Notes under the pieces: generated by a model
Told to the model about the DNA's origin: nothing
What the model saw: only the letters and a program-made list of their open reading frames with translations
Databases searched by the model: none
Origin: an uncultured Alphaproteobacteria bacterium
GTDB lineage: Bacteria; Pseudomonadota; Alphaproteobacteria; Micavibrionales; Micavibrionaceae
Direction: 5' to 3'
DNA: 64,000 nt
NCBI GenBank assembly: GCA_963702155.1
Contig: OY969717.1
Coordinates: forward strand, 657,563 to 721,562
Position numbers and translations under genes: made by a program
Part shown: piece after piece, positions 4,463 through 39,862 of the stretch
How the letters are laid out: every line of letters begins with the position of its first letter
How positions within the stretch are numbered: the first letter of the stretch is position 1

Positions 4463-4484
4463 GTTTTTAAAATAATTAAAATAA

Positions 4485-6809: not shown

Positions 6810-7107
6810 GGATTATCAGATTTTGAATTCCTCGATCATCAGATGTTTACAAACAAATTTTCTCTGCTATGTTAACTGCATGCGAAAAGATCATGTATGA
6901 AGTAAAGTATGATAATAAATAAAAAACCTGCTTTTATAGTTTTGACGTTGACTGTTTTAGTTTACCTCACTTCTATTGATAAAGCTTATGCTTGCCTTAC
7001 AGTCAATGACCCTGTGGAAGTTGCATTTAAAGAAAGCGATGTTGTTTTTTCTGGTAAGCTCGTAGGGTGCGAGTCTAAAAGAAAATAAAAATTTTCTTAA
7101 GTATGAA

Positions 7108-7428
7108 GTGCATCAAATTTGGAAAGGAAATATACAACGAGAGTATCTAAAACCTATTAAAGCATCATGTAATAGTCGGATAGTAAATTATAATTTAGTG
7201 GAAAGCCGAAACCAAAAAATAATTACATATGCTGATCATACCAACGAAAATTTTTATCTAAAAAAATACCACAAAGGAAACTGTGGCGGAAGAACGACTT
7301 TAATTCCTTCGTTTTGGCAAAAAGTATATTATAAGGCCTATTATTTCATAAAAGGGCAACACCATATACCATTCGCTTTTGAGGAAGATTACGAATTATT
7401 AGGCGAACCTAAGCATACCTTTAAGTAG
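7108..7428 (+). CDS. Hypothetical protein, possibly the 3' part of a broken gene that starts at 6908
   Basis: 106-aa ORF. A 59-codon signal-peptide-like ORF (6908..7087) lies just upstream in another frame. Confidence 0.3.
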   Translation: MHQIWKGNIQREYLKPIKASCNSRIVNYNLVESRNQKIITYADHTNENFYLKKYHKGNCGGRTTLIPSFWQKVYYKAYYFIKGQHHIPFAFEEDYELLGEPKHTFK

Positions 7429-7752
7429 AAAGTAAAATACAGATGAGTAATTTAAATTATACAGATGTAATAAATACATCTTCAGTATCTAATTCTGAAA
7501 CAAAAACAAAAATTGAATCCGTGCTAGATCAAATTGATGATACGAATGAGGGGCAGGTTTTACTCCAAAATATACTGCAAGGTGAGATGTATGATATTTT
7601 TGATTTGTAGCTATGTTCTAAATTTATTATTTTTTCGTTTTTGGTCATAATTGATCTCTTTCTCTAATATTTAGAGTAAAACTCAATTTATAGAAATTTT
7701 CTAGAAAAGGTTGTTGTTATAGCCCCCTAGGTCAATTAAGAATTGTTATATA

Positions 7753-8580
7753 TCAAGACGTTGAGCGTTCCTTAAATTCAGGAATCCAACTAGTTTCAAT
7801 TGTTGAGATGGAAATGTTTACTTTCTCTTTTTTCAAAAAATCATGGATTTCAGAAGCCGCAGAGGTATTTTTATATTTATACAGCTTTCGAAGACTATAA
7901 ATTTCCTCAGCACGAGTTTTATGAGCATTCGTCTTCTCAGCATTTTTATTGCCGCCTTTTGAGCCATGTACGGCACTGTAAGATGGCCCTTTAATATATT
8001 GGTACATGCTACTATGTATTTTTGAGAGTGAATCTATCTCGCATTGCTCGTAAGAGTAGAGTGCAAGTTCAACCGCATAAAAAGTAGCAATTGCATACAG
8101 CTCTTTTTCGGATCTTGTTTTCCCTGCTAATTTTAGTGAAAATGGATTTCTTTCTAATTCTTCATTATTTATATACGTATCATCGACAAGGGTTCCTATA
8201 TATTTATTTGAGTCTTGAGGTCTCTCGTCAATGATCTTCTTAAATCGTGAAATCATAATAATTTTATGCGCGTTCATCATAAATTGACCTCTCAACTCTA
8301 AATTAGTTTTGTAAAAATTATCCACCTCATCAATCTCATTGAGCTGATGCACTTCACACATTAAGGCCAAGAAAGCACGCACAGATGCATGCATCATTTC
8401 AGTGCGTTTAATTTTTAAATTTTTAGGTAACTCAACGTGTTTTGAGATGTCGTCTTTCCAAAAATACTTATAAGCATCGCTTAAATATATGGATAAACCT
8501 GTTTTTTCTAAAATTTGTGGGCTTACGAACAAATATTTTAATGTTGACGTATTTGTATATTTTTCATTTTCAAGAGACAT
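7753..8580 (-). CDS. Hypothetical protein, divergent from the DUF2924/recombinase pair
   Basis: 275-aa ORF, AT-rich. The C-terminal segment (SEIHDFLKKEKVNISISTIETSW) looks HTH-like. Confidence 0.5.
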   Translation of the reverse strand: MSLENEKYTNTSTLKYLFVSPQILEKTGLSIYLSDAYKYFWKDDISKHVELPKNLKIKRTEMMHASVRAFLALMCEVHQLNEIDEVDNFYKTNLELRGQFMMNAHKIIMISRFKKIIDERPQDSNKYIGTLVDDTYINNEELERNPFSLKLAGKTRSEKELYAIATFYAVELALYSYEQCEIDSLSKIHSSMYQYIKGPSYSAVHGSKGGNKNAEKTNAHKTRAEEIYSLRKLYKYKNTSAASEIHDFLKKEKVNISISTIETSWIPEFKERSTS

Positions 8581-8673
8581 AATTTTTTAAATAACCTTCT
8601 TCAGATGTTACTCGACTTCTTATGCTTTGTACGCATGTATGGACACTACCATGTAAGAAATAAGGAGTTGAAA

Positions 8674-9084
8674 ATGAAACATAAGAAAGAAATTAATCTG
8701 GCTGATTTGCGTGCACAATGGCAGCAAGCTTGGCAGATGAAGCCTCATAACCGTATCGGACGTAAAATGTTAGAGCGCAGCCTATATTTCAAACGGCACG
8801 AAAAACCATTGCCGCTGCAATCGCAAAAACGTCTTAGTAAGCTTATTCAAAATTATAAACGTAACCCACAATACTTTTCGCAAGGGCATTTGGTTTTAAA
8901 GCCAGGAATGAAAATCCTACGAGATTGGAAAGGCAAAACGCATACCGTAACGGTAACATCAAATGGGTTTAGATATGATGCCAAAAACTATACGAGCCTA
9001 TCTAAGATTGCATCGGAGGTAACCGGATCAAAATGGAATGGCTGGGTGTTCTTCGATCTTAAAGACAAGAAGGGAGCATCATGA
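8674..9084 (+). CDS. DUF2924-family protein (serine-recombinase accessory)
   Basis: ATG at 8674 follows AAGGAG. The motifs LKPGMKILRDWKGKTHTVTV..GFRYDAKNYTSLSKIASEVTGSKWNGWVFF match the DUF2924 pattern. There is a 4-nt overlap with the recombinase gene. Confidence 0.75.
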   Translation: MKHKKEINLADLRAQWQQAWQMKPHNRIGRKMLERSLYFKRHEKPLPLQSQKRLSKLIQNYKRNPQYFSQGHLVLKPGMKILRDWKGKTHTVTVTSNGFRYDAKNYTSLSKIASEVTGSKWNGWVFFDLKDKKGAS

Positions 9085-10622
9085 AACCAGACATAAAAAA
9101 CTGCGCTATTTATACGCGCAAATCTACAGAAGAGGGACTGGACCAGGATTTTAATACGCTCGATGCGCAACGTGAAGCTTGTGAGGCTTATATCTTAAGC
9201 CAGAAGGCCGATGGTTGGAAAGCGATTCAAGCCCATTATGATGACGGGGGCTATTCTGGTGGTAATATTGAGCGCCCTGGACTGCAGAAACTGATGCAGG
9301 ATATTAAAGCTAGTAAAGTCCAAACGGTCGTCGTTTATAAAATTGACCGATTGACGCGCTCGCTGACAGACTTTTCAAAGTTAGTTGAGGTTTTTGATGA
9401 ATACGGAGTAACCTTCGTATCGATCACACAAAGTTTTAACACCACAACAAGTATGGGGCGCTTAACCCTGAACGTACTGTTATCTTTTGCGCAATTTGAA
9501 CGTGAAGTCACGGGGGAGCGTATCCGTGATAAAATAGCCGCCAGCAAGCAAAAGGGTATGTGGATGGGAGGATTCCCACCGCTTGGATATCAGCGTGTAG
9601 AACGAAAGTTATTACCAGATCCGATAGAGTGCAAAACTGTAAAGCTTATATTCAACCAGTATCTAAAGCTCAAATCAGTAAGAGCGCTTGCAGATTTTCT
9701 ATCTGCTGAGAATATAAAAACACCAGAACGCGTGTCAAAAAAATGCCGCTTATATGGTAATAAAGAATATAGTAGAGGGCATCTTTATAAAATCCTCAAT
9801 AATCCTGTTTATATCGGCATGGTACGCCATAAAGACAAAGTTTACGAAGGTCAGCATGAAGGCATTATAGACAAGGCTGTTTTTGAAAGCGCACAAGAAC
9901 TGCTCAACAGGCAAGCCGTTGTAAGAGCAGGCAAGACGATTGATAGCGGACAATTGTTAAAAGGACTGCTCTATGATGTTGATGGCACGATTTATAGCCC
10001 AACATATACTTCAAAAGGTAAAAAGCGTTACAGCTATTATATCAGTCAGAATTTACTCCAATATCGTGACCACCCAAAAGGCGTTTTAGCGCGCATCCCA
10101 GCCCATGAAATTGAAAAGGCAGTCACTTGTGGTTTGAAGTCATGGCTATCCGATGACGCCAATCTTGTGGAATTATTTCCCTCCGTAGCTCGGCAGACTC
10201 TAAAATGGATTTCAAATCAGCATTTAGATATTTTGCACGATGATGTGCGCGCCATTTTAAGTATGGTTGTCTTGGCGCAAGATGAAACGACACTCAAAAT
10301 TAACACAGCCAAACTGCAACAATATTTAGAAGATACATTAAAGGTTACGCTTGAAACACCATCTTTAAAAGAGATCTTAGTATTTGTTCTGTATAAAACA
10401 AAGCGCGTAAATAATGGCGCGGTCATTGTTGAAACCAATAGTAGCAATAAAAACATGCTTGATATACCTAATGATCAGCTCGCGCGTATTGTAAAAGGCA
10501 TAGTTTGGCGAGACGAGCACTTTGCCGGTAGCACCCTCAAATCAATCTCAAAAAAGTATCAGCATGGCGAATATTATGTTCATCGATGTATTCATGAGAG
10601 TTTTGACTTTTTGAGCCGTTAA
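9081..10622 (+). CDS. Large serine recombinase
   Basis: 513 aa. N-terminal resolvase domain (AIYTRKSTEEG...DAQREAC, VVVYKIDRLTRS), followed by recombinase and zinc-ribbon-like regions. Confidence 0.92.
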   Translation: MKPDIKNCAIYTRKSTEEGLDQDFNTLDAQREACEAYILSQKADGWKAIQAHYDDGGYSGGNIERPGLQKLMQDIKASKVQTVVVYKIDRLTRSLTDFSKLVEVFDEYGVTFVSITQSFNTTTSMGRLTLNVLLSFAQFEREVTGERIRDKIAASKQKGMWMGGFPPLGYQRVERKLLPDPIECKTVKLIFNQYLKLKSVRALADFLSAENIKTPERVSKKCRLYGNKEYSRGHLYKILNNPVYIGMVRHKDKVYEGQHEGIIDKAVFESAQELLNRQAVVRAGKTIDSGQLLKGLLYDVDGTIYSPTYTSKGKKRYSYYISQNLLQYRDHPKGVLARIPAHEIEKAVTCGLKSWLSDDANLVELFPSVARQTLKWISNQHLDILHDDVRAILSMVVLAQDETTLKINTAKLQQYLEDTLKVTLETPSLKEILVFVLYKTKRVNNGAVIVETNSSNKNMLDIPNDQLARIVKGIVWRDEHFAGSTLKSISKKYQHGEYYVHRCIHESFDFLSR

Positions 10623-11410: not shown

Positions 11411-12295
11411 TCACACCTCACTACATTTATTGATTTCAAATTCTAAAGTTGAATGTTCGATAGAATGATCGTCATGAAGCATAGTTTTTAGATGTTTTTT
11501 TGTTGCTTCCATCTTATCCATATTCGAGAGAACAACGTGCGCTTCCAAGGCATTGCGTTGCTCGTCAAGCTGCCATACATGAACGTGATGAACATTCTTT
11601 ACGCCTTCAATATTTTCCATGGCGGTGGTTATATCGTCGATGCTGACATTCTCTGGTGTTCCTTCCATAAGCAGGTGAATTACTTTCGGAATTTCTGAAA
11701 AACCGTGATAGAGGACATATCCGGCAATGAGCAGCGTCATGGCCGCATCCGTCCATATCCAGCCATACAGTAAAATCAGCGTTCCGGCGATAATCACACC
11801 CACGGATGCTGCCGCATCTGTTAAGTTGTGCAGAAATGCCGCTCTAATATTCATGCTGTTTTTGGATTGGCTGTAGGTCAAAAGAGCTGTAAAAATATCC
11901 ACGACCAAGGCAATAGCCGCCACGATAACAATCGTCCATCCTGCAATCGGCTCCGGCGTTATAAAACGCATAATCGCCTCGTAACACAGATACAATCCAA
12001 TAATGATCAAAGTGGTCAGGTTAATGAGCGCGGCTATGGTTTCAGCGCGTTTGTAGCCAAAGGTTTTAAATTGATCTGGTGGTTTTCGACCAATCCGAAT
12101 AGCCACCAGTGCAATAAATAGCGAGGCCGCATCACTGAAATTATGCAGGGCGTCGGCAATCAAGGATAAGCTGCCGGAGATTATACCACCAATAACCTGT
12201 GCCACTGTCAGCAATATGTTTGCGCCCACCGCCCACCATAAGCGTTGTTCTCCTACTTCAGACGGATCTCCGTGATGATGATGTCCATGTCCCAT
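11411..12295 (-). CDS. czcD: Cation diffusion facilitator (Zn/Co/Cd efflux)
   Basis: 294 aa with an N-terminal HGHHHHG tract. IADALHNFSDA and FGYKRAE motifs, six TM segments and a C-terminal cytoplasmic domain. Confidence 0.9.
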   Translation of the reverse strand: MGHGHHHHGDPSEVGEQRLWWAVGANILLTVAQVIGGIISGSLSLIADALHNFSDAASLFIALVAIRIGRKPPDQFKTFGYKRAETIAALINLTTLIIIGLYLCYEAIMRFITPEPIAGWTIVIVAAIALVVDIFTALLTYSQSKNSMNIRAAFLHNLTDAAASVGVIIAGTLILLYGWIWTDAAMTLLIAGYVLYHGFSEIPKVIHLLMEGTPENVSIDDITTAMENIEGVKNVHHVHVWQLDEQRNALEAHVVLSNMDKMEATKKHLKTMLHDDHSIEHSTLEFEINKCSEV

Positions 12296-12905: not shown

Positions 12906-16097
<3,192 letters not shown>

Positions 16098-16104
16098 CTA
16101 CTTT

Positions 16105-17241
16105 TTAATGTTCGTGCGCTGCGCCGGATTTCAAAATATCGGCCTTGATAATAAAACTGCCTTCGCTGACATAGCTCTGTCCTGCGCTCAAGCCGCTTGT
16201 GATTTCAATATACCGTCCGTCAGACACGCCTGTTTTGACGGGCTTCATCTCATAATTATTGCCGTCTTTTATGAACACGACGGTTTGATCTTCCATTGTT
16301 TGCAAAGCGGATTCCCGCACGGCCAGAGGCACCTGCTTTTGTGAAACGCTTACATCGCCCTCGACAGTCGTGCCTGGCCTCCACATGCCATTTTCATTGC
16401 TCATTGGTGCAACAGCCACAAGCGTTTGGCTCAAAGCATCTGCGGTGGGAAACAGCATTGAGATTGTTGCATCTTGTTCTTTGCCTTCATCAAGCGTGTG
16501 AACGCGAACGCTTTGCTGCGTGGCGACAACATCAGCATCTTTGGGAAAAATGTGGAACTTTGCCCAGACCGTTGAAAGATCAGCAATTGTAAACAAAGAC
16601 CCATCACCCGCAACGTCACCTAGGTTGGTATTTCGCATCAAAATGGTGCCATCAATCGGTGATGTGACACTATATTCTTTAAGGCTTTCATTGCTCTCGA
16701 CAATGGCCAGCACTTGGCCTTTTTTAACAGTTTCACCCAGATTAGCTTTGACGCTGCGGACAATGCCAGGAAACCGCGCCCGCACTTCGGCTTTCGTATT
16801 TTGGTTGATCGTGATGCGTCCCGTAAGAGCGACAACATCCCCAATCATGGCCGGAGCGGTTTTCTCAATCATAACGCCAGCCTGTTTTGCGGCGTCTGGT
16901 GCAATTTCAGTTTTGCCTTCTTCGTGTTCGTCACCATGATCGTCATGTCCACCGTGACCATGGTCATCGTGGCTATCTTCCTTTTCATGACTGTCATGGC
17001 CGTGATCATCATGAGAGTCGCCGTCTTCGGAATGATCATCGCCATGGTCGTCGCCATCGCCTTCATCATGCCCGTCTTCATGCTCATGTCCGTCATCATG
17101 GCCGTGGCCTTTTTGTTCGTCATGTCCATGATCGTCATGCGTTTCTGTTTCCGCTTTTGCGGAGGTAATAAAGGCGGGTGTGAGTTGCCACGCAAATAGC
17201 GCAAGCCCCAACACAAATAGAGATAAGAGTTTTTTAGTCAT
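16105..17241 (-). CDS. czcB: RND efflux membrane-fusion protein with a His/Asp-rich N-terminal extension
   Basis: 378 aa: signal/anchor, an ~80-aa HD-rich tract, then an HlyD-like barrel-sandwich region. Confidence 0.9.
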   Translation of the reverse strand: MTKKLLSLFVLGLALFAWQLTPAFITSAKAETETHDDHGHDEQKGHGHDDGHEHEDGHDEGDGDDHGDDHSEDGDSHDDHGHDSHEKEDSHDDHGHGGHDDHGDEHEEGKTEIAPDAAKQAGVMIEKTAPAMIGDVVALTGRITINQNTKAEVRARFPGIVRSVKANLGETVKKGQVLAIVESNESLKEYSVTSPIDGTILMRNTNLGDVAGDGSLFTIADLSTVWAKFHIFPKDADVVATQQSVRVHTLDEGKEQDATISMLFPTADALSQTLVAVAPMSNENGMWRPGTTVEGDVSVSQKQVPLAVRESALQTMEDQTVVFIKDGNNYEMKPVKTGVSDGRYIEITSGLSAGQSYVSEGSFIIKADILKSGAAHEH

Positions 17242-18517
17242 TGGTTTTTCCTTCTAAGGTTGCTTGAGAGAAATGTTCGATCAGGGGGCTATGTGTCCCC
17301 ATCAGGAAATCGGTTTGTGCCTTGGCCTCATAAACGCTTAACAGACTATCCAGCCGTGCTTCACGCACTTCGTACAAAACGCGCTGTGCATCAAGCAAAT
17401 CGAGGAAACCAAAAGCACCACGGCCATAACCGTCATCGGCCTGATTGTAGGCTTTCTGTGCGCTCGGGATGATTTCATTCTGATAACGCTCCGCCTCGGC
17501 CAGAGATGCCGCATAATTTTCCCATGTCTGAATAGCCGATTGACGCAAAGCCAGACCAGCCGCATAGGTTTCGGCATCGGCTTTGATCATATTGGCCTTG
17601 GCTTCCTTTATACTGCCCTGATTGCGGTTAAAAACCGGAAGCGGGAATGAAACACCGGCCACCAGTGCCGTGCTGTCATTCTCATTGAAGCGGCGAATAC
17701 CCAGCCCGAAAGTCGGATCCGGCACGGCCTGTGATCGCGCTAAATCCAAAGATGATCGCGCTTGCATTTTGGCAAATTCCTGCGCTTTCATTTGAGGGGC
17801 GTTTTGAATGGCTTGTAAAAGACTTTCTTTTTCCAGCAAGTCCGGCAACGATCCGATATCAGCGTCCACGGTCAAATCAGCGGTATCTACACCACCCAAC
17901 AATCGTGCGAGATCATTTTGCGCGGTGACCAATTCCTGTTCAGCGCGCCTTTGTTCAACCTCGGCGGCGGCTTGTTCGATATCCGCTTTGGTGTGTTCAA
18001 TCTCTGCGGATCTTGCCGCTCCGACACGTTTTTTAACGATGTCGTGGGTTTTATCAGCCAGCGCAAGGCGTTTATCCGCCAAGGCAACGCGTTCCTGTGC
18101 TACGGCCACACGCATATAGGTGTAATCGGTTTCGGCCAAAAGGCTTAAGGCTTGTGCCTTGGCCTGTTGCTGATTGATGTTATATGAGAAACCCGCGACC
18201 TTTGTGCGATTGCCGCGCTTTCCGCCCATCTCAATTTTTTGCTCAATACCAAGCGTAAGCTCCGCGCCATCAAAGCCTTCATTTTCATCGTCTCCGGCAA
18301 AGTTTTCTATTTCAAAAACCGCATCGGGGTTTGGAGGGAGTGAGGCTTGAAGGCGTGAGCCGTCCGCCGCATCAATATCTGCCAATGCCGCCTTATAAGT
18401 CGGGTTATTCTGTAAGGCTGTTTGAAGCGCCGCCTGTTTATCCAGCGATTCAGCTCTGGCGAGTGTTGGTTGCCATAAAAGCATAGCCAGCGCGGACGTA
18501 TAGAGTAATTTTTTCAT
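17234..18517 (-). CDS. czcC: Outer-membrane factor (TolC-like) of the heavy-metal efflux system
   Basis: 427 aa with a signal peptide and duplicated OEP coiled-coil repeats. Overlaps the czcB start. Confidence 0.88.
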   Translation of the reverse strand: MKKLLYTSALAMLLWQPTLARAESLDKQAALQTALQNNPTYKAALADIDAADGSRLQASLPPNPDAVFEIENFAGDDENEGFDGAELTLGIEQKIEMGGKRGNRTKVAGFSYNINQQQAKAQALSLLAETDYTYMRVAVAQERVALADKRLALADKTHDIVKKRVGAARSAEIEHTKADIEQAAAEVEQRRAEQELVTAQNDLARLLGGVDTADLTVDADIGSLPDLLEKESLLQAIQNAPQMKAQEFAKMQARSSLDLARSQAVPDPTFGLGIRRFNENDSTALVAGVSFPLPVFNRNQGSIKEAKANMIKADAETYAAGLALRQSAIQTWENYAASLAEAERYQNEIIPSAQKAYNQADDGYGRGAFGFLDLLDAQRVLYEVREARLDSLLSVYEAKAQTDFLMGTHSPLIEHFSQATLEGKTND

Positions 18518-22369: not shown

Positions 22370-22567
22370 TATGTCGAAATGGGCATGGTCGGGCAGTAGT
22401 AGACCCGTAACAAGCGTCTGACAAAACGATATTTGTCGCTCTCTGGCTTTATGGCCGGGGGGCGGCAGCGTATGTCCAGAGCCTCGGCTTAAAGGCTGTC
22501 GCGGCTGTCTTGTTACGGTCTACTAACCTCCGGCCACCATGCCTAATAAACGGCATGGTGGTTTTTT
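22370..22567 (+). ncRNA. Candidate structured RNA (unknown class) ending in an intrinsic terminator
   Basis: 15-bp helix 22399-22414/22509-22523, with nested hairpins. Terminator CCACCATGCC/GGCATGGTGG + T6 at 22534-22567. A 5' GGCATGGT (22382-22389) can compete for ACCATGCC. Confidence 0.45.
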
Positions 22568-22599: not shown

Positions 22600-22830
22600 G
22601 AATAATGTAACACTATTTGTTGTGACGGGGCGTAGTAACCCCAACGAATATACGTATGGAGCGCGTGTTTGCGTAATGGCTCCTCTCTACCTTATGGTCG
22701 AGAGGACGTGCGGAATACAATACTCGCTTGCGAGGAATACGCCGTGCATCGATTCGTCGATGTTACTAACCTCTTGGCTACCAGAGGTATCTTGTCACAA
22801 TGCAATGCAGATGAGATATGCGATGGAGCT
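22600..22830 (+). other. Second densely structured segment, either a leader of the XRE gene or an independent RNA
   Basis: At least six perfect hairpins, including CATCGA-TTCG-TCGATG (22747-22762). Shares TACTAACCTC with the upstream RNA. Confidence 0.35.
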
Positions 22831-23621: not shown

Positions 23622-23659
23622 AAAAAAAGCCCCAGACCTGCACGAGGCAAGCCTGGGGC
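23622..23659 (-). terminator. Intrinsic terminator oriented for minus-strand transcription
   Basis: Strong hairpin GCCCCAGACCTGC/GCAAGCCTGGGGC. The T-run is present only on the minus strand (A7 on plus at 23622-23628). Confidence 0.5.
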
Positions 23660-23693
23660 GTTGGAAATCTTATGTATTTTTCAATAATTGCAA

Positions 23694-23722
23694 TTGTTGC
23701 TATTGCGGCAATTGGTTAATAT
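23694..23722 (+). promoter_or_regulatory. Sigma70-like promoter candidate for the NTase cassette
   Basis: TTGTTG, 17 nt, then TAATAT. Followed by AAGGA and an ATG at 23754. Confidence 0.35.
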
Positions 23723-23753
23723 GGCAGTTAATCAAATTTTTAAGGATTTGGAC

Positions 23754-24524
23754 ATGGGGACATCATATCTTCAAAGCCTCTTGGCACAACGTAGTGCATC
23801 TGGAAGTGTTACATCAGCGGTTGATGCGGCGAACAAGCTCATACCTCTTATCAATCGATGGGGTAATGGCTATGTTGCAAATATTTCCCTGTCTGGGTCA
23901 TATGCGAAAGGTACGGCAGTCCAGGGCGGCACAGATGTCGACCTATTCATTTCATTATCCTCAAATCTCAATGACAGTCTCGCTGATATTTACAATACTT
24001 TGTATAATTGCCTAAGCCAGAACGGACATACTGCTCTTCAAAAACAAAATGTGTCCATCGGCACAACAGTGAATGGGTTTAAGGTCGATCTTGTTCCGGC
24101 GAAGAGACAAGATGCATATAGTCAGGATCATAGCCTGTATCGCCGGAAGGCAAACACATGGACAAAAACCAATGTTCAAAAACATATTGATTTGGTTTCA
24201 AGATCGGGACGTTTGAGCGAAATTCGCGTTATGAAGCTCTGGCGCAATCATAAAAATCTTGAATTCCCGTCTTTTTATCTGGAACTCTGCGTTATTGAAG
24301 CTTTAAAAGGTTATGGCCTGATATCGGGAGGAAGCGGCGATCTATCCAAAAATATTGTCCGCGTTCTAAATTATTTAAAGACGGATTTTAAAACAGCGCG
24401 GTTTCTTGATCCTGCTAATACCAATAATGTCATTTCGGGTGATATGACGCTGCAGGAAAAAACCCTTGTTGCCCAGGCTGCAGAACGATCACTCGCCGGA
24501 AGTTGGGAACAATTTATTTCATGA
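23754..24524 (+). CDS. SMODS/CD-NTase-like nucleotidyltransferase (Pol-beta fold)
   Basis: SGSYAKGTAVQGGTDVDLF (GS...DxD), a third acidic strand FKVDLVPA, then W.KTN..KH...R..K.WR and PSFYLE, as in the minimal CD-NTase/OAS-like layout. Alternative starts at 23721 and 23688. Confidence 0.7.
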   Translation: MGTSYLQSLLAQRSASGSVTSAVDAANKLIPLINRWGNGYVANISLSGSYAKGTAVQGGTDVDLFISLSSNLNDSLADIYNTLYNCLSQNGHTALQKQNVSIGTTVNGFKVDLVPAKRQDAYSQDHSLYRRKANTWTKTNVQKHIDLVSRSGRLSEIRVMKLWRNHKNLEFPSFYLELCVIEALKGYGLISGGSGDLSKNIVRVLNYLKTDFKTARFLDPANTNNVISGDMTLQEKTLVAQAAERSLAGSWEQFIS

Positions 24525-24569
24525 ACAGATTCTCTGCTCTCACATCTTCTTGCCGGATTTAACGAGGAG

Positions 24570-25238
24570 TTGTTAAACCAGCTTAAATTAGGCCGAAGCA
24601 CAACAGAACACCCCGTCTTAAAAGGCGATGCCAGTGAGTTGGCATGGCTGGATATGCTCCAAACCTATTTGCCCAAAAGATACGAGGCGCAGAGCGGTGT
24701 GGTGATCGATGCCGAAGGTGCTAAAAGCGATCAGATCGACATCATCATTTTTGATCGCCAGTATTCACCCTTTATCTTTACCAATAACGGCATTCATTAT
24801 GTTCCGGCAGAGAGCGTGTACGCCGTCTTTGAAGTGAAACAGTCTTTGAATAAAGAAAATGTCTCATACGCACAGCAAAAAATAGAATCTGTCCGGTCTT
24901 TAAGCAGAACAAGTTTGCCAGTGCCGAATATTTACGGAACGAGCAAAGCCAAAGAGCCGCATTTTATCCATGGAGGACTATTATGCCTCAATTCGGATTG
25001 GGCGCCGCCATTTGGTCAGCCTTTTGAAAAACAGATGCAGGAGGCCAATCCTGCATCAATGATCAATTTGATCTGCGTTGCTGCAGAAGGGTTTTTTGAG
25101 CTGGGCGATGATGTGCAAGCCTATCAAAAACAAAAGCCGGTTACATTATTCTTCTTTAGAGTAATCAGTCTCCTGCAACAAAAAGGCACCGCGCCGATGA
25201 TGGACATTATGGCCTATGCAAAATGGCTGGATGGTTAA
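24570..25238 (+). CDS. PD-(D/E)xK nuclease-fold protein (DUF6602-like); start codon uncertain
   Basis: SDQIDIIIFD ... VYAVFEVKQSL gives a D...(D/E)xK arrangement. The frame is open from 24525, immediately after the NTase TGA and in the same frame. The only in-frame start is TTG at 24570. Confidence 0.6.
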   Translation: MLNQLKLGRSTTEHPVLKGDASELAWLDMLQTYLPKRYEAQSGVVIDAEGAKSDQIDIIIFDRQYSPFIFTNNGIHYVPAESVYAVFEVKQSLNKENVSYAQQKIESVRSLSRTSLPVPNIYGTSKAKEPHFIHGGLLCLNSDWAPPFGQPFEKQMQEANPASMINLICVAAEGFFELGDDVQAYQKQKPVTLFFFRVISLLQQKGTAPMMDIMAYAKWLDG

Positions 25239-28200
25239 ATTCCCCCAATCAAATTTTTGTAATAAGCATGCTTCTGCATGATCTCGTCTTGCGTTAAAAG
25301 CCGCCCATGAGCATCGCCAAAGTAATACACGCTATCGCTAACGCTGGTGCCTAAATAGAGTTTTTGTGAGAAGGATGTAATTTCATCTTCGGGATTAAAT
25401 GGCATTTCTGCTATGGCGAGGGAACCATTTTCGTACAGGCGCATTTCTGTGTTGTCAGTGACCGCCAGCGTGATAATTACAGGCTTGGCTGTGTCGGTAT
25501 AAAGCCCGTTTGTAATGGTGATGTTTTTATTATCAGCATCGCGGCGTTTGTAATCAATGCGGGTCGGGTCGAGATTGCGACCGACCACCATGGCGCGATT
25601 GCCGTTAAAACCCCACATCTGGTCTTCATTGCCGTTGGCAATATGCGCGACAATCGTGATTGTCATCCCAGCCTTTGCGCCGTAATTGGATAGCAGATAA
25701 CGCAGAGTGCCGTCGGTCACGGAATTGGATTGAATGATGGGCTGGCCATTTATACCGCCCTGGGCATGATATTCCGGTCTTAGTAAAGGGTCATCTTGGC
25801 TTATATGAAAACCATTGCCGCTTTGATCGGTGAGTTGCTCCACACGACCAGAACCATCGAGCAACACCGTATCGGCATTCCAGACCGCATCTACATCACC
25901 GAACGCTTGTGGCGGCGCTGGATTATCAGATACGACGACACGCTGCCGCGCAAACGGCTGTAACGGTTTAGTATCGGCGGCATTGTTAGAGGGAAACTGG
26001 CTCGGCACCGGATAATTGAGCGGCCCATAACCCCATGTCGCTTCAACAATATCGCCATCCTCTATAAAGTCAGCCACAGCCAGATTAAACTCTGTTTCTG
26101 TGGTTTTTTGCGCGGCATATACTTCGCTTTGTTGGCCGTTGATTTCGACATACCAACCTTTGTAACGCAAATTATCAGCATCCTGCGCCAGCGTATCGCC
26201 GCCATCCAGATCAAGAGCAACCTTGATATTGCGCGTATTTTTAAGAGCTGATAACGCGGTCATAGCTGGGCCGAATACGCCCTGGGCATCACGTTTGCCA
26301 ATATAAAACGCGGCAAGATCGGCTTGCCTCTGGCCATATAAAATACGCCCAGCATCATTGAAATGCACCGTATCATCTAAAGGCTGGTCAACCGTCCAGA
26401 CCCCGGGGACAATACATGAAGCCTCTTGTGTGACTTCAATTTGGATTTCTCTAACGCGCTGCCATGCTTGCGCTGCTAGCTCGTTCGTGTCCACGCCTAG
26501 ATAATCAAGGGCAATGACGGCATTCGGGCATTTGGCTTTCATGGCCGCAAACAGCATAAGCAGTGCCTGTTTGTATTGTCCGAAATTCAGATCCACAATG
26601 CCACCATCGGTTTGGCCTTGGTTCCAGTGAATAATCTGCACATCCTCTGGGCTGTCAAAATCGGCATCGATACGGGCAACCCAACTATTATAGGCCGGGC
26701 CGTTTACGATAAGTTCGGCATCATTATTGACCCAATAATTCCCTGTATTTGAAGAACGCAACAAGCCGGATCCTCCGGTTGCGCCCTGTGAGGTTGTTAC
26801 GATATCGAAGTAATCCTTGGCGCGCGCAATATAGGCGCCATCGCCATCACCGCCATTGATTGTGGTTTGCTGTTGCATAAGGGATTGCCCAGCATAGGAA
26901 GCAAAGAGATATTCCAGCTTCGTGGTCTTTTCCCAAACTTCCTCGGCGATCACCTTGCCAACGGTTTCATTGCTGGAGAGCGAATAATGCTGTTCATCGC
27001 CTGGTATCCCTGGCTGGTCTGTTCCTTCAACAAAATAAACGCGGGAGACGTTATCAGCCACATCCTTCTGCCCGTCGATGATGGCATCATAATCAGCTTC
27101 GTCTAAGGAGATATCGGTCGACCATTCGGGCATGCCGACATTGAACCAGGGTAAGCCGGGATATTGTAAGGCCGTGCGGATTTCATAAATGAGAGCCTTT
27201 AATTCGGCGGCGTAATCATTGCGGGGAACATCATTGCCAGCATCGGATTCACCTTGCCCCCATATAATACCGGCCAACTGACCATGTTGGCGCAGCATGC
27301 TTAAGCGGTTGATGGTCGCCATAACAGAGGTGCCAAGCCCTTTAATCTTTGTGCCGCTTGTACGGTATCCGGCGCGTTCACTTTGGGTCGGCCATGTAAC
27401 GGTTGAGCCGCCGATCAAACCACTCCCATTGACGTTACAGGGAACAACGCCGATATCCTGACCCAATAAATCCACCATGTGGTTGGCAAAAAATCCGGCA
27501 TACCCGACCTCCTGAATAGAGTTTTGTAAAACAGGCAGAACGATATTTGTATCATCGGTGTACGGATCTGCATATTGTTTGACCGCACCATCATGGGCGA
27601 AGAGATACATATCACTTATATTCGGATAGACCGGAGAACCAGTGGCAATGCCAACACTGTTGGATTGCCCTAAGAACGCATAAAATTTCTTGTTCGGATC
27701 AAATGTTACACCCGTCAAAATATCTGCGTTGGATGTTAATTTGCGCCCCTGAGTTTGTGTTAAACAGTGATCGTAATAATGGAATTCATGTAAGGTTTCG
27801 GTCGACATACCAAAGCTACCACCCAACTGCGCCAAATCAACGCGGTTTAAACCAACCGGCCTAACAAAATCAGTATCAATGGAGGCATACAATGCACCGT
27901 TAACCCAGCACATCATATGGTTTTCATTCCAGCCTATGGCCACCTTAATGCGGCCACTAGCAAAACAATCCATAAAGCTGTCAAAAACCTCGTTTGTTTC
28001 ACCTTCTGTTTTACAAACAAGCCGAAAACGATCTTGTGTATCGCGCCGCTGTAAAAAAATACTATTTGTTATGTCGCCATCATCAGTCACACCAAGGTAA
28101 AGTGGACTGCCTGATAAATCATTTACATCGGAATCGGTTAGATCCAAAAACACTGTGCCTTGCGCGGCATTGAAATTGGGGATGGTTTCAACACCTTGAA

Positions 28201-28279
28201 CCGGACTTTTATTGATATAGGCCGGACGCGGAAATCGGACGCGTGGTTGCGGCGACATGCGCCCTGGTTGAATAAGCAT
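25235..28279 (-). CDS. Tail fibre / receptor-modifying protein with two SGNH (sialate O-acetylesterase-like) domains and LamG-like ends
   Basis: GQSNSVG...WGQGESD, then a second GQS...WNQGQTD...DDTVHF set. Concanavalin/LamG-like N- and C-terminal regions. Confidence 0.75.
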   Translation of the reverse strand: MLIQPGRMSPQPRVRFPRPAYINKSPVQGVETIPNFNAAQGTVFLDLTDSDVNDLSGSPLYLGVTDDGDITNSIFLQRRDTQDRFRLVCKTEGETNEVFDSFMDCFASGRIKVAIGWNENHMMCWVNGALYASIDTDFVRPVGLNRVDLAQLGGSFGMSTETLHEFHYYDHCLTQTQGRKLTSNADILTGVTFDPNKKFYAFLGQSNSVGIATGSPVYPNISDMYLFAHDGAVKQYADPYTDDTNIVLPVLQNSIQEVGYAGFFANHMVDLLGQDIGVVPCNVNGSGLIGGSTVTWPTQSERAGYRTSGTKIKGLGTSVMATINRLSMLRQHGQLAGIIWGQGESDAGNDVPRNDYAAELKALIYEIRTALQYPGLPWFNVGMPEWSTDISLDEADYDAIIDGQKDVADNVSRVYFVEGTDQPGIPGDEQHYSLSSNETVGKVIAEEVWEKTTKLEYLFASYAGQSLMQQQTTINGGDGDGAYIARAKDYFDIVTTSQGATGGSGLLRSSNTGNYWVNNDAELIVNGPAYNSWVARIDADFDSPEDVQIIHWNQGQTDGGIVDLNFGQYKQALLMLFAAMKAKCPNAVIALDYLGVDTNELAAQAWQRVREIQIEVTQEASCIVPGVWTVDQPLDDTVHFNDAGRILYGQRQADLAAFYIGKRDAQGVFGPAMTALSALKNTRNIKVALDLDGGDTLAQDADNLRYKGWYVEINGQQSEVYAAQKTTETEFNLAVADFIEDGDIVEATWGYGPLNYPVPSQFPSNNAADTKPLQPFARQRVVVSDNPAPPQAFGDVDAVWNADTVLLDGSGRVEQLTDQSGNGFHISQDDPLLRPEYHAQGGINGQPIIQSNSVTDGTLRYLLSNYGAKAGMTITIVAHIANGNEDQMWGFNGNRAMVVGRNLDPTRIDYKRRDADNKNITITNGLYTDTAKPVIITLAVTDNTEMRLYENGSLAIAEMPFNPEDEITSFSQKLYLGTSVSDSVYYFGDAHGRLLTQDEIMQKHAYYKNLIGGI

Positions 28280-28548
28280 TATTGATCCTCCGTTTTTTGC
28301 TGTAAGGCACTATTCACGGCCTGTAATTTGGATTTACAGTCTTTGTGGGCGTACCAGAGGTTGGTATAGTTTTCGGCGATATCGCGCTGGGTCATATCCT
28401 CGCCTGGATAATCCGGCGCATCCTTACAATCCCGAAGCGATTGCGGGATGTCTGGCTCAATCACCTTAATCTGTGTTTGTGGTGCGCCCGTACAGGCGGT
28501 CAATAGTGCCGCGCAGCACAGGAGCGGCAGGTGCATCTTCCTCATCAC
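28279..28548 (-). CDS. o-spanin-like outer-membrane lipoprotein
   Basis: 89 aa with lipobox LLTAC. Its 5' end overlaps the i-spanin 3' end. Confidence 0.65.
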   Translation of the reverse strand: MMRKMHLPLLCCAALLTACTGAPQTQIKVIEPDIPQSLRDCKDAPDYPGEDMTQRDIAENYTNLWYAHKDCKSKLQAVNSALQQKTEDQ

Positions 28549-28831
28549 TGGCTCCTTTTATACGGCCTAAAAGCCGCTCTTGGTTTTTGGCGCGGGTGAT
28601 TTCCCGCATGGATTCTTCCTCCAAGGCTTTGATCTTTGCGGCGGCATCACTTTGAAGCGTGGCAAGGCTGGATTCATAGGAGGCAATGGTGGCTTCAGAG
28701 GCGCGAAGTTTTTGCGTGAGCGTGTCAATGCGGTGGCTCTGATATGTGATCCAGCCTAAAAACACTGCCATCGCTAAAAAGCTGACGACAGGACGCCAAT
28801 ATTTAATCGCGAGATTGATCAAGACGCTCAT
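28466..28831 (-). CDS. i-spanin-like protein
   Basis: Start MSVLINL at 28831. N-terminal TM helix followed by a coiled coil. Confidence 0.65.
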   Translation of the reverse strand: MSVLINLAIKYWRPVVSFLAMAVFLGWITYQSHRIDTLTQKLRASEATIASYESSLATLQSDAAAKIKALEEESMREITRAKNQERLLGRIKGASDEEDAPAAPVLRGTIDRLYGRTTNTD

Positions 28832-29060
28832 TTTGGCCTCCTTTGGTTCTGATATGTGCGGAATACAAATACGCCCCAATCGGCCCCGATGCTAAAATGC
28901 CGATATAGGTCAGCACCGCTTTAAGCAGACTAATATCGGCACCGCCATAGAGCTGATAAAAAATCAGCACATGCGGCAAAATTACAAAGGCATAAATGGC
29001 CGTCCAAATCGCAAGCGTTCGGCGCACCTTTATGGGATCGTTAGTATCGGGTGTGATCAT
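28803..29060 (-). CDS. Holin candidate (two TM helices)
   Basis: Start MITPDTND at 29060 after GGAGG. Two hydrophobic helices and a charged C-terminus. Confidence 0.55.
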   Translation of the reverse strand: MITPDTNDPIKVRRTLAIWTAIYAFVILPHVLIFYQLYGGADISLLKAVLTYIGILASGPIGAYLYSAHIRTKGGQNERLDQSRD

Positions 29061-32996: not shown

Positions 32997-34811
32997 TTAT
33001 TCGAGGACAAGAACGACCGTCTCGTCTCCGGTGGTTGTGGCTTGGACGGGTCCAGCGAAATCTGATTTGTTGCCATAGCGATCAACAGCGCGGAGCCAGT
33101 AATAAAACTCGGTATTGCCGATAAGCAGATTGCGGGTGAATGAGTTGTCGTAGACTTCCAAAATCCTTGCGGCATCAACATCCGGCGTGGCGGTGTTGCT
33201 GGTTTTTTCAAACACCTCGACATAGCGGAAATCGCTCTCGGTAATGGGATCCCAGCTCACCGTGATAAAATCATCGCCAGCCGTGGCCGTGACGTTATTC
33301 GGCTCATTGGGTGGCACAGATTGATTGTTCGGAATCACAACCTCCGGCGCATCACCGATAGTGCGAAGGTCGGCTTCATCGAATGTGTAAATCGTTTCGC
33401 CGTCTTCATCGAGCGTGAGATCCACACCCATATCTTCAACCATTTGCCAGTTACTGACGCGGCATGGCAGACCGTTTAATCCAAAACGCGGCAAATCCAG
33501 CGCGACCGTGTGTCCGGCGGCAATCTGATATCCGGCGAGGTTGGCGGGATATTAAATCTGGCGCTGTCTGCGAATTTGCTCCAGCGCAATACGGGCAATA
33601 CGCTGCGCCATGGTGTGCGAGGTGGTAAACGATAAGTCCAGGGTCGTAAAAATCTCCTCACCATCATCCTGCGCCACATAGAGACTGCTTTCCACGGATG
33701 GGTAATCGGTGGATTGATAATTATGATCCGGCGATACGAATGCACCTTTAACGCCATTGAAGAGCTGACGCTTGGAGCGGTGCGGACGCATAATAACCGC
33801 ATCGCGTAAGTAGCTTTCATCAAAGGTTTTAAGCGGCGGACTATATGCGCCGACATGCAATCGCCATGTGCCGCCTGTGTGAACCAAAAATCCGGCACAG
33901 CTTGACAACATCTGCTCTAAAATATCGCGTGGGCTGTCGGTCAAATCGACCACGCCATTGCATGTGTAACGCTTTTCCGTGCCGTCTAGCGTGTTGACCA
34001 CCTCATCGCAGATATTGGCGGCGGCGATAAAGGAATTGAGATCAATCTCTCCAATCGAAGCACCCAGGCCAAAATCAGAGAGCAAATAATCCAAAACACA
34101 AAGTGCAGCATTGTTGGAATATGCGGTGCTTTCATCACGCGGATCATAGACTTTCCGGCCTTGTACCAGCGCAGATATATTCGGTGTCCCGCTGGGATAG
34201 GCTTTCTCGTCATAGCGCATCTCCGCGTGGATATAGGCAAGACCGCGTAAACGGTGGGCGTTTGTCCATTTGCCATCGGCATTGGCAGTGAGGACAGGAT
34301 CTGCTTGCTGGTCGATATCGCCCAGATGTTTATACACGCTGGCATAAACCGTGCTGTCCCGCTTATAAGGCTCGGAGGTGGCATCATCGTTGCCATCCAA
34401 AGGCACGACTTCATCATTGAAATAAATATCGCCAATGGCCTCCACCTCATGAGCGGCAAGCACAATCACCCAATGAAGCATATCCAGCTTGGCATCCCCC
34501 GCATTAACCGGACGGCTATGCGTAAATACTAACGGGCCGGAGACGCGCACCTCGCCATAAACAATGCGGTGCGAGACAATCGGCTGGTTAATCATCTGCG
34601 TCCGGCCACGGCTTCCGTTTGATATGGAGGTGACCGATGCGGCGCTAAAATCAGGGCGTTTCGGCTTAGGTGCAAATAATGGTGCGGTAAAGGATACAAC
34701 GGCAGAGCCGACGACACCGCCAACAATCGCGCCGATAATACCGCCGCCAACAACGCCGGAGACAAAGTTGGATGCGACCGCGCCTAAAACAACCGGAATG
34801 ACCTGGGGCAT
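32997..34811 (-). pseudogene. Host-specificity (lambda J / GTA g15-like) tail protein interrupted by an in-frame TAA
   Basis: ORFs 33552..34811 and 32997..33494 are in the same frame, separated by one TAA at 33552-33554. The C-terminal piece has an FN3-like domain and no ATG start. Confidence 0.7.
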
Positions 34812-37432: not shown

Positions 37433-39862
37433 CTATTCAAATCGAGAGCCGCGCCGTTGCCAGCTATCAACCGTGCGGCGTTGCGCGACTTGTGCGGAGG
37501 TTTCAATAATGCCTGGGATCCGTGCGTTCAATGCTTCATCGACAGCTTTACGAACAGAAACGGATGTGGCTGTGGGATCGGTAGAGCCTCTGGCATCAAC
37601 GCTGATGGCAAAGAAACTGCCAGAACCACTGCCAATCGCTTCCACGCCCAGATTACCGTTTGATGTACGGCGCAATGGTAATACGGCCTCGGGTCCGGCT
37701 TCACCCATAAGCCCCATGCCTTTGGCCATGGGGAATACAGTGGGCGCGCTCACAACGCCGCCACGGGCAAAGGCTGTGACATTGCCGTTATTAAACGCGG
37801 CGCCTTTTGCAAAGAAGCCGCCGAATAAATTACTGAAAAAGCCACCACCTCCGCCGCCACCGCCACCGCCACCGGAGCTTTGACCGCCGAAAATGTTGCC
37901 GATGAGACCGCTTAAACCTTGGGCAAGCGGTCCTGTGATTTGAGTGCGTACCAATAGCCGCGCCACATCTTCCAAGATTGAATCCACCAGCTCTTTAAAC
38001 TCAAACTTTCCGGTGGTGGCGGCATCGACCAGTGCGTCTTCCAATCCCTGCATGGCGTTGGTAACCACACGCTCCACATTCGCCGCCATATCGGTGGCTT
38101 CCTCGGCATATTTATCTAAAGCGCGTTTGGCACCGTCGAACCATTTGGTGCTGGCTTGCTCCAATTCGTCATAAGCCTGTTTTCCAGCCGCTTCAAACTC
38201 CTCTAAGGATATTGCACCTTCTTCGAGCAGCTCATTCAGCTCTTTCATCCGGTCGTTATATCGATCCTGCGCGGAGATATTCTCTTCGGTGATTTTCTTA
38301 ATATCCTCGATGAGTTGTTGTTTGCGGCGTTCAACTTCCTCTTCGCCTTCCTTGGCCTCTTTGAGACGAAAATACTCTTCGACAAGACGCTGGATTTCCT
38401 GTCCTTCTTGCGATTTGAGAGCCACGCCTGCGGATTGGAGCTGATTATAAAGCTCTTGTGTTTTTTCATCACGGAGCAGTTGCTGATTGCGGAATTTTAA
38501 GCTCTGCGTGATCTGGTCAATTTTCTTGCGCTCGGCCTCTAATTGTTTGATGAGGGCTTTTTGCTCTTTGGTTTGTTTTGCAGGGCGTGTACTAGCGGCA
38601 GCGGCGGCCTGGTTCGCTTGTTTTGTTTTAGAGGCGGTGATCTCGGCCTGACGCTGTAACTCCTTCAGGCGTTTTTCCTGTTCCCGCAATCCCTGTATGG
38701 ATTCCTTAGACGGCCCGAAATCAAGCGTCCCAACAAATTGACGGGCGTTATCGGCAATAGCGGCATCGACGGCGGCGCGGAGATTATTAATGGCACGAAT
38801 GCCTTCCGTTTCAACGCCCGGGATAGAATTGACCACAGCAACGACCGCATTTTGCAATCCTTCCAGCGTGATTAATAATCCGCGCGCCAAGCCCAGCACG
38901 ACCGTTTGAACGGTCAGGAATGAAGCCTTAATGAACCGTGCGGCGAAGAAGGCTGTTTTTTCAACGATGCCCACGGATTCGGCAAAAGCCATTTGTCCGG
39001 TGACGGCTTTGGAGGCCACACCGATAGAGCGTGCAAAGGCATCTGTAAGATCGGCCAGAAATTCAATAATGCCGCTTTCACCGATGGTGCGTGATAATTC
39101 CGTCCACGCATTATCCAGCCGCGTTAAGGATCCGCTGATTGTATCATCCAGATCCGATGCCGCGCCGTCATAGCCTTCCAACGCCGTAACGAGCGTGGTG
39201 GCGAATAGATCAGAGGTGACTTCTCCGGCATTAACCAAGCGACGGAAACCACCAGCTGACAATCCAGCGGCTTTGTCCAACTCCTGCAGGAGACCAGGCA
39301 ACGGTTCTACCACCTGATTGAGTTCTTCAGCACGAAGCGTTCCGGCTGACAAACCCTGCGATAGCCCAAAAAGAACACGCTCAATATCTGCGCCGCCAGC
39401 ACCCAATCGGGCGGCGGCATTGACCAAACCTTCAGAGAGCTGGTTGACCTGTTCACGATTTAAAACACCGCTGTTTTGCAAGACCAAGAGCCGCGCATAA
39501 CCGTCTGATAGTGTTTCAATGCCGACATTCAATTCATCGGCTTTGGCCTTTAAGAAATCCTGCGTGTTGGCGTAATCTTCGGAGCTGTTGGTTAAGGCTT
39601 TGAGACGCAAATCCAGTTTTTCAAAGGTCTGGATATTCCGGAAGATGGATCCGGCAGATGCGGCGGCGGCAAAGGCTGGCACCAGTGTCGATGTAATATT
39701 CCGCGCCACGCCAGCTAGAGCCTTGTTGGTGCGGCCTGCGCTGACACGTATCTTTTTAAGCGCACGGTCGCCCTTGTTGCCAACTTGATCCAGATCGCGG
39801 GATACGCGAACGGATCCGTCAACTTTCAGACGGATAACGTAATTGGACTGCCTATCGGCCAT
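37433..39862 (-). CDS. Tape measure protein
   Basis: 809 aa, alpha-helical/coiled-coil, with a Gly run and GG-rich C-terminal part. Position is between chaperone and distal tail genes. Confidence 0.88.
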   Translation of the reverse strand: MADRQSNYVIRLKVDGSVRVSRDLDQVGNKGDRALKKIRVSAGRTNKALAGVARNITSTLVPAFAAAASAGSIFRNIQTFEKLDLRLKALTNSSEDYANTQDFLKAKADELNVGIETLSDGYARLLVLQNSGVLNREQVNQLSEGLVNAAARLGAGGADIERVLFGLSQGLSAGTLRAEELNQVVEPLPGLLQELDKAAGLSAGGFRRLVNAGEVTSDLFATTLVTALEGYDGAASDLDDTISGSLTRLDNAWTELSRTIGESGIIEFLADLTDAFARSIGVASKAVTGQMAFAESVGIVEKTAFFAARFIKASFLTVQTVVLGLARGLLITLEGLQNAVVAVVNSIPGVETEGIRAINNLRAAVDAAIADNARQFVGTLDFGPSKESIQGLREQEKRLKELQRQAEITASKTKQANQAAAAASTRPAKQTKEQKALIKQLEAERKKIDQITQSLKFRNQQLLRDEKTQELYNQLQSAGVALKSQEGQEIQRLVEEYFRLKEAKEGEEEVERRKQQLIEDIKKITEENISAQDRYNDRMKELNELLEEGAISLEEFEAAGKQAYDELEQASTKWFDGAKRALDKYAEEATDMAANVERVVTNAMQGLEDALVDAATTGKFEFKELVDSILEDVARLLVRTQITGPLAQGLSGLIGNIFGGQSSGGGGGGGGGGGFFSNLFGGFFAKGAAFNNGNVTAFARGGVVSAPTVFPMAKGMGLMGEAGPEAVLPLRRTSNGNLGVEAIGSGSGSFFAISVDARGSTDPTATSVSVRKAVDEALNARIPGIIETSAQVAQRRTVDSWQRRGSRFE

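Follow-up and report, generated by a model that had tools for sequence, protein, structure and literature searches.

A likely Type I CBASS cassette with a probably disabled NucC effector gene at the edge of a Micavibrionaceae prophage

Gene content of the cassette

The stretch of DNA analysed here (hereafter the window) comprises 64,000 nucleotides (nt) from an uncultured alphaproteobacterium of the family Micavibrionaceae (assembly GCA_963702155.1, contig OY969717.1, positions 657,563 to 721,562) and carries, at the edge of a prophage, a cassette of two adjacent plus-strand open reading frames (ORFs; 23688-24524 and 24570-25238). A sequence-only reading of the window had described a SMODS-type nucleotidyltransferase like cGAS and DncV (CD-NTase; gene 1), followed by a DUF6602-like protein with a PD-(D/E)xK nuclease core (gene 2), and had proposed an anti-phage role for the pair. 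The two plus-strand genes are present with all the motifs quoted for them, well past what chance would give, and both the anti-phage role and the position at the prophage edge are judged to be right. The locus is here assigned, with a high degree of confidence, to the Type I anti-phage signalling systems based on cyclic oligonucleotides (CBASS), as the combination of a short CdnC/CdnD-like CD-NTase and the endonuclease NucC in which nucC has probably been disabled or attenuated by a one-base insertion. The features of the two genes and of their junction are as follows.

23754 to 24524, plus strand: CBASS CD-NTase, 256 amino acids (aa), intact (PADLOC, Pfam SMODS, family alignment, AlphaFold)
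24525 to 25238, plus strand: NucC reading frame, 237 codons and a stop codon, homologous over its full length (PADLOC, PDB, alignment, AlphaFold)
24524 to 24525, plus strand: one-base insertion, AA as against a single A in relatives; CATGAACAGAT in the window and CATG-ACGGAT in the closest relative, L001 (alignment)
24521 to 24562, plus strand: native nucC ATG, which overlaps the cyclase TGA as ATGA and now heads an out-of-frame ORF of 13 codons, MNRFSALTSSCRI, with its stop codon TAA at 24560-24562 (translation)
24570 to 25238, plus strand: NucC ORF of 222 aa from the first in-frame start codon, TTG, as in the public annotation P0001 (start-codon list)

The cyclase

The first gene is matched from end to end by the PADLOC model Cyclase PDLC00803 (E = 3.7e-84; residues 25-277 on profile positions 4-252 of 253). 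Pfam confirms the SMODS assignment, with 38.2 bits against a cut-off of 26.5, and the CBASS cyclase models of NCBIfam score below their own cut-offs. The start had been placed near 23694, and is moved to ATG 23754 by the alignment of twenty homologues and of L001, together with an AAGGA Shine-Dalgarno sequence 8 nt upstream of this codon. The protein contains the motifs LSGSYAKGTAVQGGTDVDLF, VDLVPA, WTKTNVQKH, KLWR and SFYLE and retains all invariant columns of the family, including the GS motif (S47-G48-S49) and the catalytic residues D61, D63 and D112. It thus combines the features by which a CBASS cyclase is recognised, namely membership of the SMODS/CD-NTase family, the GS motif and the acidic triad.

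Sequence matches to the PDB are weak, and include Bacillus cereus CdnD (9SA4; 1.2e-6), Escherichia coli CdnC (EcCdnC; 7e-4) and Pseudomonas aeruginosa CdnD (PaCdnD; 5e-3). The AlphaFold model (predicted local distance difference test score, pLDDT, 80.9) has a CD-NTase fold, and its top matches among PDB folds are PaCdnD (6P82, 6P8U) and EcCdnC (6U7B, 6P80), with E values of about 1e-9. Against the best CdnC/CdnD folds the template modelling (TM) scores range from 0.55 to 0.70 at 15-21 % identity, with the window cyclase shorter than EcCdnC and PaCdnD by approximately 50-60 residues. This similarity of the modelled fold may point to clade C or D. Both PaCdnD and EcCdnC produce cyclic tri-adenylate (cAAA) and are naturally partnered with NucC, and by analogy the product of the window cyclase is most likely 3',3',3'-cAAA. 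Short cyclases of this kind (~252-258 aa) pair almost exclusively with NucC, with no solved structure for them among the PDB matches found.

The NucC endonuclease

The second reading frame is matched end to end by the PADLOC model 'Effector: Endonuclease (NucC)' (PDLC00745; E = 5.7e-89) and by a second NucC model (E = 1.2e-56). Its PDB matches are NucC of E. coli MS115-1 (6P7O; E = 1.8e-63), P. aeruginosa (6Q1H; E = 9.7e-61), Vibrio metoecus (6UXF; E = 3.5e-53) and Serratia (7ZGV; E = 5.4e-43), and Pfam confirms the DUF6602 domain (E = 3.9e-33). The E. coli enzyme is a homotrimer of restriction-endonuclease-fold subunits, with D73, E104 and K106 forming its IDx30EAK active site (bioRxiv 10.1101/694703). 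This site is conserved in the window protein, in which the motifs DQIDIIIFD and FEVK are present and QID...FEVK aligns with QID...FEAK of E. coli NucC. A single cAAA molecule is bound per three-fold pocket of the trimer, contacted by R53, Y81, T226 and the backbone of V227, and is covered by a gate loop whose latch consists of H136 and Y141, both demonstrated to be essential in the E. coli enzyme (bioRxiv 10.1101/694703). The equivalents of R53, Y81 and T226 are conserved within LPKRY, DRQYSPF and KGTAPM, respectively, in the alignment to E. coli NucC. NucC needs no SAVED or CARF domain, as the oligomer itself builds the ligand sensor; hence the sequence-only reading recognised no such domain and mistakenly took the architecture to be undescribed. 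Trimers bound to cAAA pair through alpha0, the helix N-terminal to a linker at residues 23-34, and the hexamer so formed brings active sites together so that both strands are cleaved, DNA being cut to pieces of ~50 bp (bioRxiv 10.1101/694703). In the AlphaFold model of the full NucC frame of the window, alpha0 comprises residues 4-25 (encoded at 24525-24600).

By analogy with the characterised systems of E. coli and P. aeruginosa, the cyclase would be activated on phage infection and produce a cyclic trinucleotide, most likely cAAA, one molecule of which would occupy the three-fold pocket of each NucC trimer. Trimers would then join in pairs through their N-terminal alpha0 helices to form a hexamer, which would cut double-stranded DNA without sequence specificity, such that the cell dies before phage release (abortive infection).

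Classification of the system

A Type I CBASS is defined as a two-gene operon of cyclase and effector (bioRxiv 10.1101/2023.05.21.541620). The window locus consists of a cyclase and an effector only, with nucC directly downstream of the cyclase gene and this linkage kept in relatives. No PADLOC match to Cap2, Cap3, HORMA or TRIP13 was obtained for the upstream XRE protein and lipoprotein or for ten further ORFs drawn from the two sides, the flanking ORFs covered also being counted as 14. When all ORFs within 3 kb of 83 loci with a cyclase gene followed by nucC (the window included) were clustered, the commonest flanking family was a serine-recombinase-like protein, found at 7/83 loci, and the XRE protein and lipoprotein of the window belonged to none of the recurrent families. 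The cassette is thus a self-contained module of two genes, with no recurrent third gene, and is therefore placed in Type I. Three related arrangements were rejected. The HORMA protein and TRIP13/Pch2-like ATPase of Type III CBASS are absent both from the window flanks and from loci with the same cyclase family. Regulation by CapH/CapP is contradicted by the absence of CapP and by the XRE gene not being kept beside the cassette in L001 or other loci; the XRE protein matches capH weakly (3.8e-6), among many generic helix-turn-helix models in PADLOC. A NucC associated with a type III CRISPR system is not consistent with the neighbouring genes, which encode the XRE protein, the lipoprotein, the CD-NTase and phage proteins, with no Cas matches among the tested ORFs.

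The locus is an instance of an already published anti-phage system and not a novel defence architecture. The closest published counterpart in organisation is the Type I operon XpCdnC03-NucC, which was included in a phage-challenge panel and restricts phages (bioRxiv 10.1101/2023.05.21.541620). In both, a CD-NTase gene is followed by nucC without Cap2, Cap3, HORMA or TRIP13, and both systems are detected by one pair of PADLOC models, for the cyclase and for the NucC effector. The window differs in its short cyclase (256 aa), the clade of which is suggested by its fold similarity to CdnC/CdnD, and in the frameshift in the second codon of its nucC. The Type III CBASS of E. coli MS115-1 and P. aeruginosa ATCC27853 (CdnC or CdnD, HORMA, TRIP13 and NucC; 6P7O, 6P7P, 6Q1H, 6P80, 6P82) include a homologous NucC and the nearest cyclase folds. 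They share with the window the IDx30E-K active site, the cAAA-contacting residues and an encoded alpha0, whereas the window has no HORMA or TRIP13 regulators and its nucC start is disconnected. The NucC proteins of the type III CRISPR systems of V. metoecus (6UXF) and Serratia (7ZGV) belong to the same effector family, and the V. metoecus system is likewise prophage-encoded. There the signal comes from Cas10, whereas in the window a CD-NTase lies upstream and no cas genes occur among the tested ORFs.

Disruption of the nucC start

Peculiar to the window is a single additional A at the conserved overlap of the cyclase stop codon with the nucC start codon, which was overlooked in the sequence-only reading. 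The cyclase and NucC share a single reading frame, split only by the TGA at 24522-24524, and the window is the sole locus among the 83 in which nucC lies in the frame of the cyclase gene. Positions 24525-24569, immediately behind the stop codon, encode the conserved N-terminus of NucC (TDSLLSHLLAGFNEE) without an in-frame start, as no ATG, GTG or TTG occurs in the NucC frame before 24570. The window reads ATGAACAG in place of ATGACAG. The extra A follows the native ATG, and ATG 24521 is therefore out of the NucC frame. Publicly annotated as a protein of 222 aa, as compared to 238-248 aa in relatives, NucC initiated at TTG 24570 would be without its 16 N-terminal residues and thereby without 12 of the 22 alpha0 residues, an invariant LL pair among them. 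The TTG lies 7 nt past the stop of the 13-codon ORF, and a GAGGAG sequence abuts it without spacing.

As the sequence itself shows, the extra A breaks the conserved ATGA stop/start coupling and turns the native ATG into the opening of a 13-codon dead end. NucC would then not be made, or little of it would be made by re-initiation, without 16 residues and over half of alpha0. To judge from these sequence features, the effector is probably crippled or weakly made, and the system at this locus is probably inactive or attenuated with an intact cyclase.

The insertion itself is likely to be genuine. A Logan contig assembled from run ERR12040027 (L164; 939 nt) also reads CATGAA, and is identical to the window over 937 nt, from position 23589 through ...TTTCATGAA. 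Widespread assembly indel errors were rejected as the cause of the frameshift, since the overlapping ORF pairs that were tested are not split genes: no split gene was found among five suspicious overlapping pairs in the window, and the large terminase subunit (TerL), portal, tape measure, the 1014-aa protein next to nucC and a 1059-aa RND pump match their profiles over most of their lengths. No other assembly on record that spans the junction was returned when the exact 222-aa NucC, 256-aa cyclase and lipoprotein products were looked up, and only a 267-aa version of the cyclase led to a contig, L164. Near-identical DNA was not found in phage and E. coli genome collections, nor the exact junction sequence in viral contigs.

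Several points weigh against the interpretation as a cAAA-signalling CBASS with a disabled effector. L164 ends only 3 nt past the TGA (its positions 930-939 correspond to window positions 24518-24527), leaves nucC uncovered and mismatches the window 2 nt before the contig end, and it may derive from the same sample as the window genome. The extra A, which rests on one genome and this one contig, could thus reflect an error of sequencing or an allele carried by a minority, and a truncated NucC might retain some activity. The nucleotide product is deduced only from the conserved pocket residues of NucC and the fold similarity of the modelled cyclase. Furthermore, the gate loop (24930-24950) reads PVPN(I/V)YGTS in the window protein (PVPNIYGTS) and its close subfamily (P0002-P0014), as compared to PIPHAGGTY of equal length in E. 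coli NucC. The E. coli latch residues H136 and Y141 are consequently replaced by N and S, respectively, with a Tyr two positions earlier, at 138, and a variant latch is likely in this subfamily, to judge from the alignment.

Alternative explanations of the junction

A system that is intact and functional, with the extra A introduced by mistake in sequencing or assembly or belonging to a minority allele, is considered unlikely. The true sequence would in that case be ATGACAGAT, encoding a 238-aa NucC that starts MTDSLL. With one A removed the N-terminus of NucC aligns to all relatives without a gap, the remainder of both genes is intact, including the catalytic and ligand-binding residues, and the 2.33-Mb source contig suggests a long-read assembly. 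The end of L164 exactly at the insertion site, with its mismatch, might also reflect read heterogeneity there. However, the independent ERR12040027 assembly carries the same additional base, the AA is not a long homopolymer in a window where no other split genes are seen, and no intact NucC allele with more than 90 % identity occurs among 5.8 billion clustered proteins.

Somewhat more doubtful still is a genuine frameshift in spite of which NucC is made, at a low level and partly active, by ribosomes that reach the TAA at 24560 through coupling and re-initiate at TTG 24570, yielding a protein without residues 1-16. The geometry of the site fits termination and re-initiation (ATGA coupling, a short ORF and TAA-CGAGGAG-TTG), the truncation would leave the catalytic core and cAAA pocket untouched, and the public annotation calls this very ORF. 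Against this, TTG is a weak start codon with its GAGGAG unspaced, and the residues lost from alpha0, among them the invariant LL, belong to the trimer-trimer interface needed for double-strand cleavage; the full NucC N-terminus is kept in every one of more than 70 relatives.

It is very improbable that the frameshift is real and has been maintained, either because an alpha0-truncated NucC binds cAAA without forming an active hexamer and so acts as a sponge or dominant-negative subunit, or because the site is a reversible on/off switch. If true, the prophage would carry the truncated NucC beside an intact cyclase, and as a sponge or dominant-negative subunit it could damp the CBASS and type III CRISPR signalling of the host or of rivals.

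Recoding, whether by read-through of the TGA at 24522-24524 into a cyclase-NucC fusion or by a programmed +1 frameshift after the ATG that restores NucC, has next to no probability and was rejected: the two ORFs do lie in one frame with a single TGA between them, but this arrangement is unique to the window among the 83 loci, the +2 frame and an overlapping NTGA being given for the others, inspection of 24521-24562 by eye shows neither a slippery sequence nor a stimulatory element, and a fusion would hang a 256-aa domain on alpha0, which must pack at the hexamer interface. Equally hard to credit is the proposal of the sequence-only reading that the genes form an undescribed pair of a nucleotidyltransferase and a PD-(D/E)xK nuclease distinct from CBASS, as a minimal signalling or toxin-antitoxin-like module; annotations in the style of RefSeq do name only a 'nucleotidyltransferase' and a 'DUF6602 domain-containing protein', and the NCBIfam cyclase models do fall short, but the full-length PADLOC matches of both proteins, the NucC structures, the published mechanism and the tested Type I cyclase-NucC operons, CdnC03-NucC among them, identify gene 2 as NucC and the architecture as a known one, and so refute the proposal. 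Such generic annotation masks a very common CBASS type. With the architecture, effector mechanism and family models published, and with PADLOC expected to label the locus CBASS Type I, the discovery value of the cassette is little.

Conservation and decay among related loci

Among protein clusters, 4033 matches to NucC (E<=1e-10) and 2013 to the short cyclase (E<=1e-5) were obtained. The sequence-only reading had made co-localisation of the two genes in other genomes a check of its proposal, and the gene pair does recur. When loci were selected on the cyclase only (82 in all, two viral and 80 metagenomic), NucC proved to be encoded directly downstream in 67, and most of the remaining loci are too short to tell. 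Conversely, the short cyclase lies directly upstream of nucC in 12 of 80 genome loci chosen by NucC, the others of which presumably use other cyclase clades. The stop codon of the cyclase gene and the start codon of nucC overlap as NTGA in all twelve of these genome loci and in 64/67 metagenome and viral loci (52 ATGA, 11 GTGA and 1 TTGA), and at the loci of this overlap type NucC is in the frame of the overlapping NTG. L001, the closest relative, encodes proteins 80 % identical to those of the window. A divergent subgroup (L083, L103, L105, L106, L112, L125, L139, L152) has, in place of the NTGA overlap, a gap of ~40 nt between the cyclase and NucC genes, and its NucC proteins are ~35-37 % identical to that of the window.

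Frameshifts inside nucC with an intact cyclase gene are found in approximately seven related loci (L090, L120, L124, L126, L155/156, L157), a comparison that is biased by the selection of loci for intact cyclases and in which some frameshifts could be assembly errors. Only a 5' remnant of nucC is left in L130 and L133, and a few loci have no recognisable effector. Together with the start-codon insertion of the window, these frameshifts and remnants suggest recurrent effector decay in the cyclase-NucC family. Such decay fits with selection against a toxic abortive-infection nuclease and warns against scoring loci of this kind as active defence. In two loci a predicted membrane protein of ~170 aa (MN.L...LGYIGALES...) is encoded behind the cyclase instead of NucC (L094, 1658-2070; L160, 1369-1878), which may represent effector swapping. 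Carriage by phages is uncommon, with the cyclase family occurring in only two of 2.9 million viral contigs.

Cassette boundaries and flanking regions

Two features mark the left edge of the cassette.

23629 to 23659, minus strand: strong hairpin with a 13-bp stem (9 GC), then a T-run on the minus strand (tail TTTTTTTGTG), terminator-like for leftward transcription, left cassette edge
23661 to 23700, plus strand: promoter-like site TTGGAA-16-AATAAT (23661-23688; 9/12 match) and a conserved noncoding block (~23671-23700), TATGTATTTTTCAATAATTGCAATTGTT

Similarity to L001 begins approximately at the right arm of the hairpin and stops right after the nucC stop codon, with unrelated flanks on both sides, and the cassette is therefore considered a mobile unit of ~1.6 kb, probably with its own promoter. 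The noncoding block, including the -10 hexamer, is shared almost letter for letter with L001, as against an identity of only ~80 % in the coding regions. The promoter claimed in the sequence-only reading thus has one candidate site with a conserved -10 block in its favour, but promoter-like sites are no more numerous in the region than chance predicts (five found, 6.2 expected). The GC content of the cassette is 0.43-0.45, as compared to 0.51 in the prophage. Late transcripts of the phage could extend antisense across the cassette as far as the hairpin, in which case the cassette would lie within the phage transcription unit.

To the right lies a prophage, the genes of which are all on the minus strand. 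It also encodes a protease and, further to the right, the small terminase subunit, a primase/helicase and methylases. Its TerL is closest to proteins of Ralstonia and Rhodobacter phages, which suggests a proteobacterial host; the GTDB representatives do not include the source organism, a Micavibrio metagenome-assembled genome at 66 % being the best match. The main features of the flanks are listed below.

9081 to 10622: large serine recombinase (Resolvase and Recombinase domains), preceded by a DUF2924 gene, in the region 8605 to 10622 (profile search)
25235 to 28279, minus strand: 1014-aa protein with a SASA (sialate O-acetylesterase-like) carbohydrate-esterase domain (profile search)
28466 to 28879, minus strand: Rz-like spanin gene
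33552 to 34811, minus strand: J-like tail fibre
37433 to 39862, minus strand: tape measure
43940 to 44884, minus strand: major head protein
47119 to 48690, minus strand: portal
48933 to 50840, minus strand: TerL

The 1014-aa gene converges on nucC, the two stop codons overlapping by 4 nt. It had been called the last tail-fibre gene of the prophage; the prophage flank was recognised correctly, but the protein has a SASA domain and no PHROG or PADLOC match, and its gene lies downstream of the Rz-like spanin gene, outside the tail module, so that the tail-fibre assignment is unproven. It may be a tailspike-like esterase. The cassette is regarded as inserted beside the end of the structural and lysis genes of the prophage.

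The left flank was previously regarded as host DNA. At the serine recombinase the GC content rises from 0.35 (positions 1-8600) to 0.41-0.47, and to the right of it lie genes for a CzcD-like protein (11411-12295), an efflux system of RND, MFP and OMF components (12906-18517), and DUF305 and MauE proteins. This supposed host side (1-22308) may itself form part of one large composite mobile island that includes the prophage.

No Rfam family reaches its gathering threshold anywhere in the window. Two plus-strand matches below threshold to sRNA-Xcc1 (RF02221), a family of small RNAs associated with integron cassettes, lie just upstream of the XRE gene, at 22453-22543 (36.5 bits, E = 5e-4) and 22697-22786 (38.6 bits, E = 2e-4), the gathering threshold being 53 bits. 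The two copies share their ends (TCTCT..TTATGG and TACTAACCTC.GGC.ACC) and differ in a variable middle part. Two minus-strand ORFs of 432 and 429 aa at 53820-55122 overlap almost fully in different frames, in a region with a strong AT skew of -0.25. The ATG-started ORF of this pair has a DNA-methyltransferase-like C-terminal part, and a second methylase (N6_N4_Mtase) is encoded at 52359-53606.

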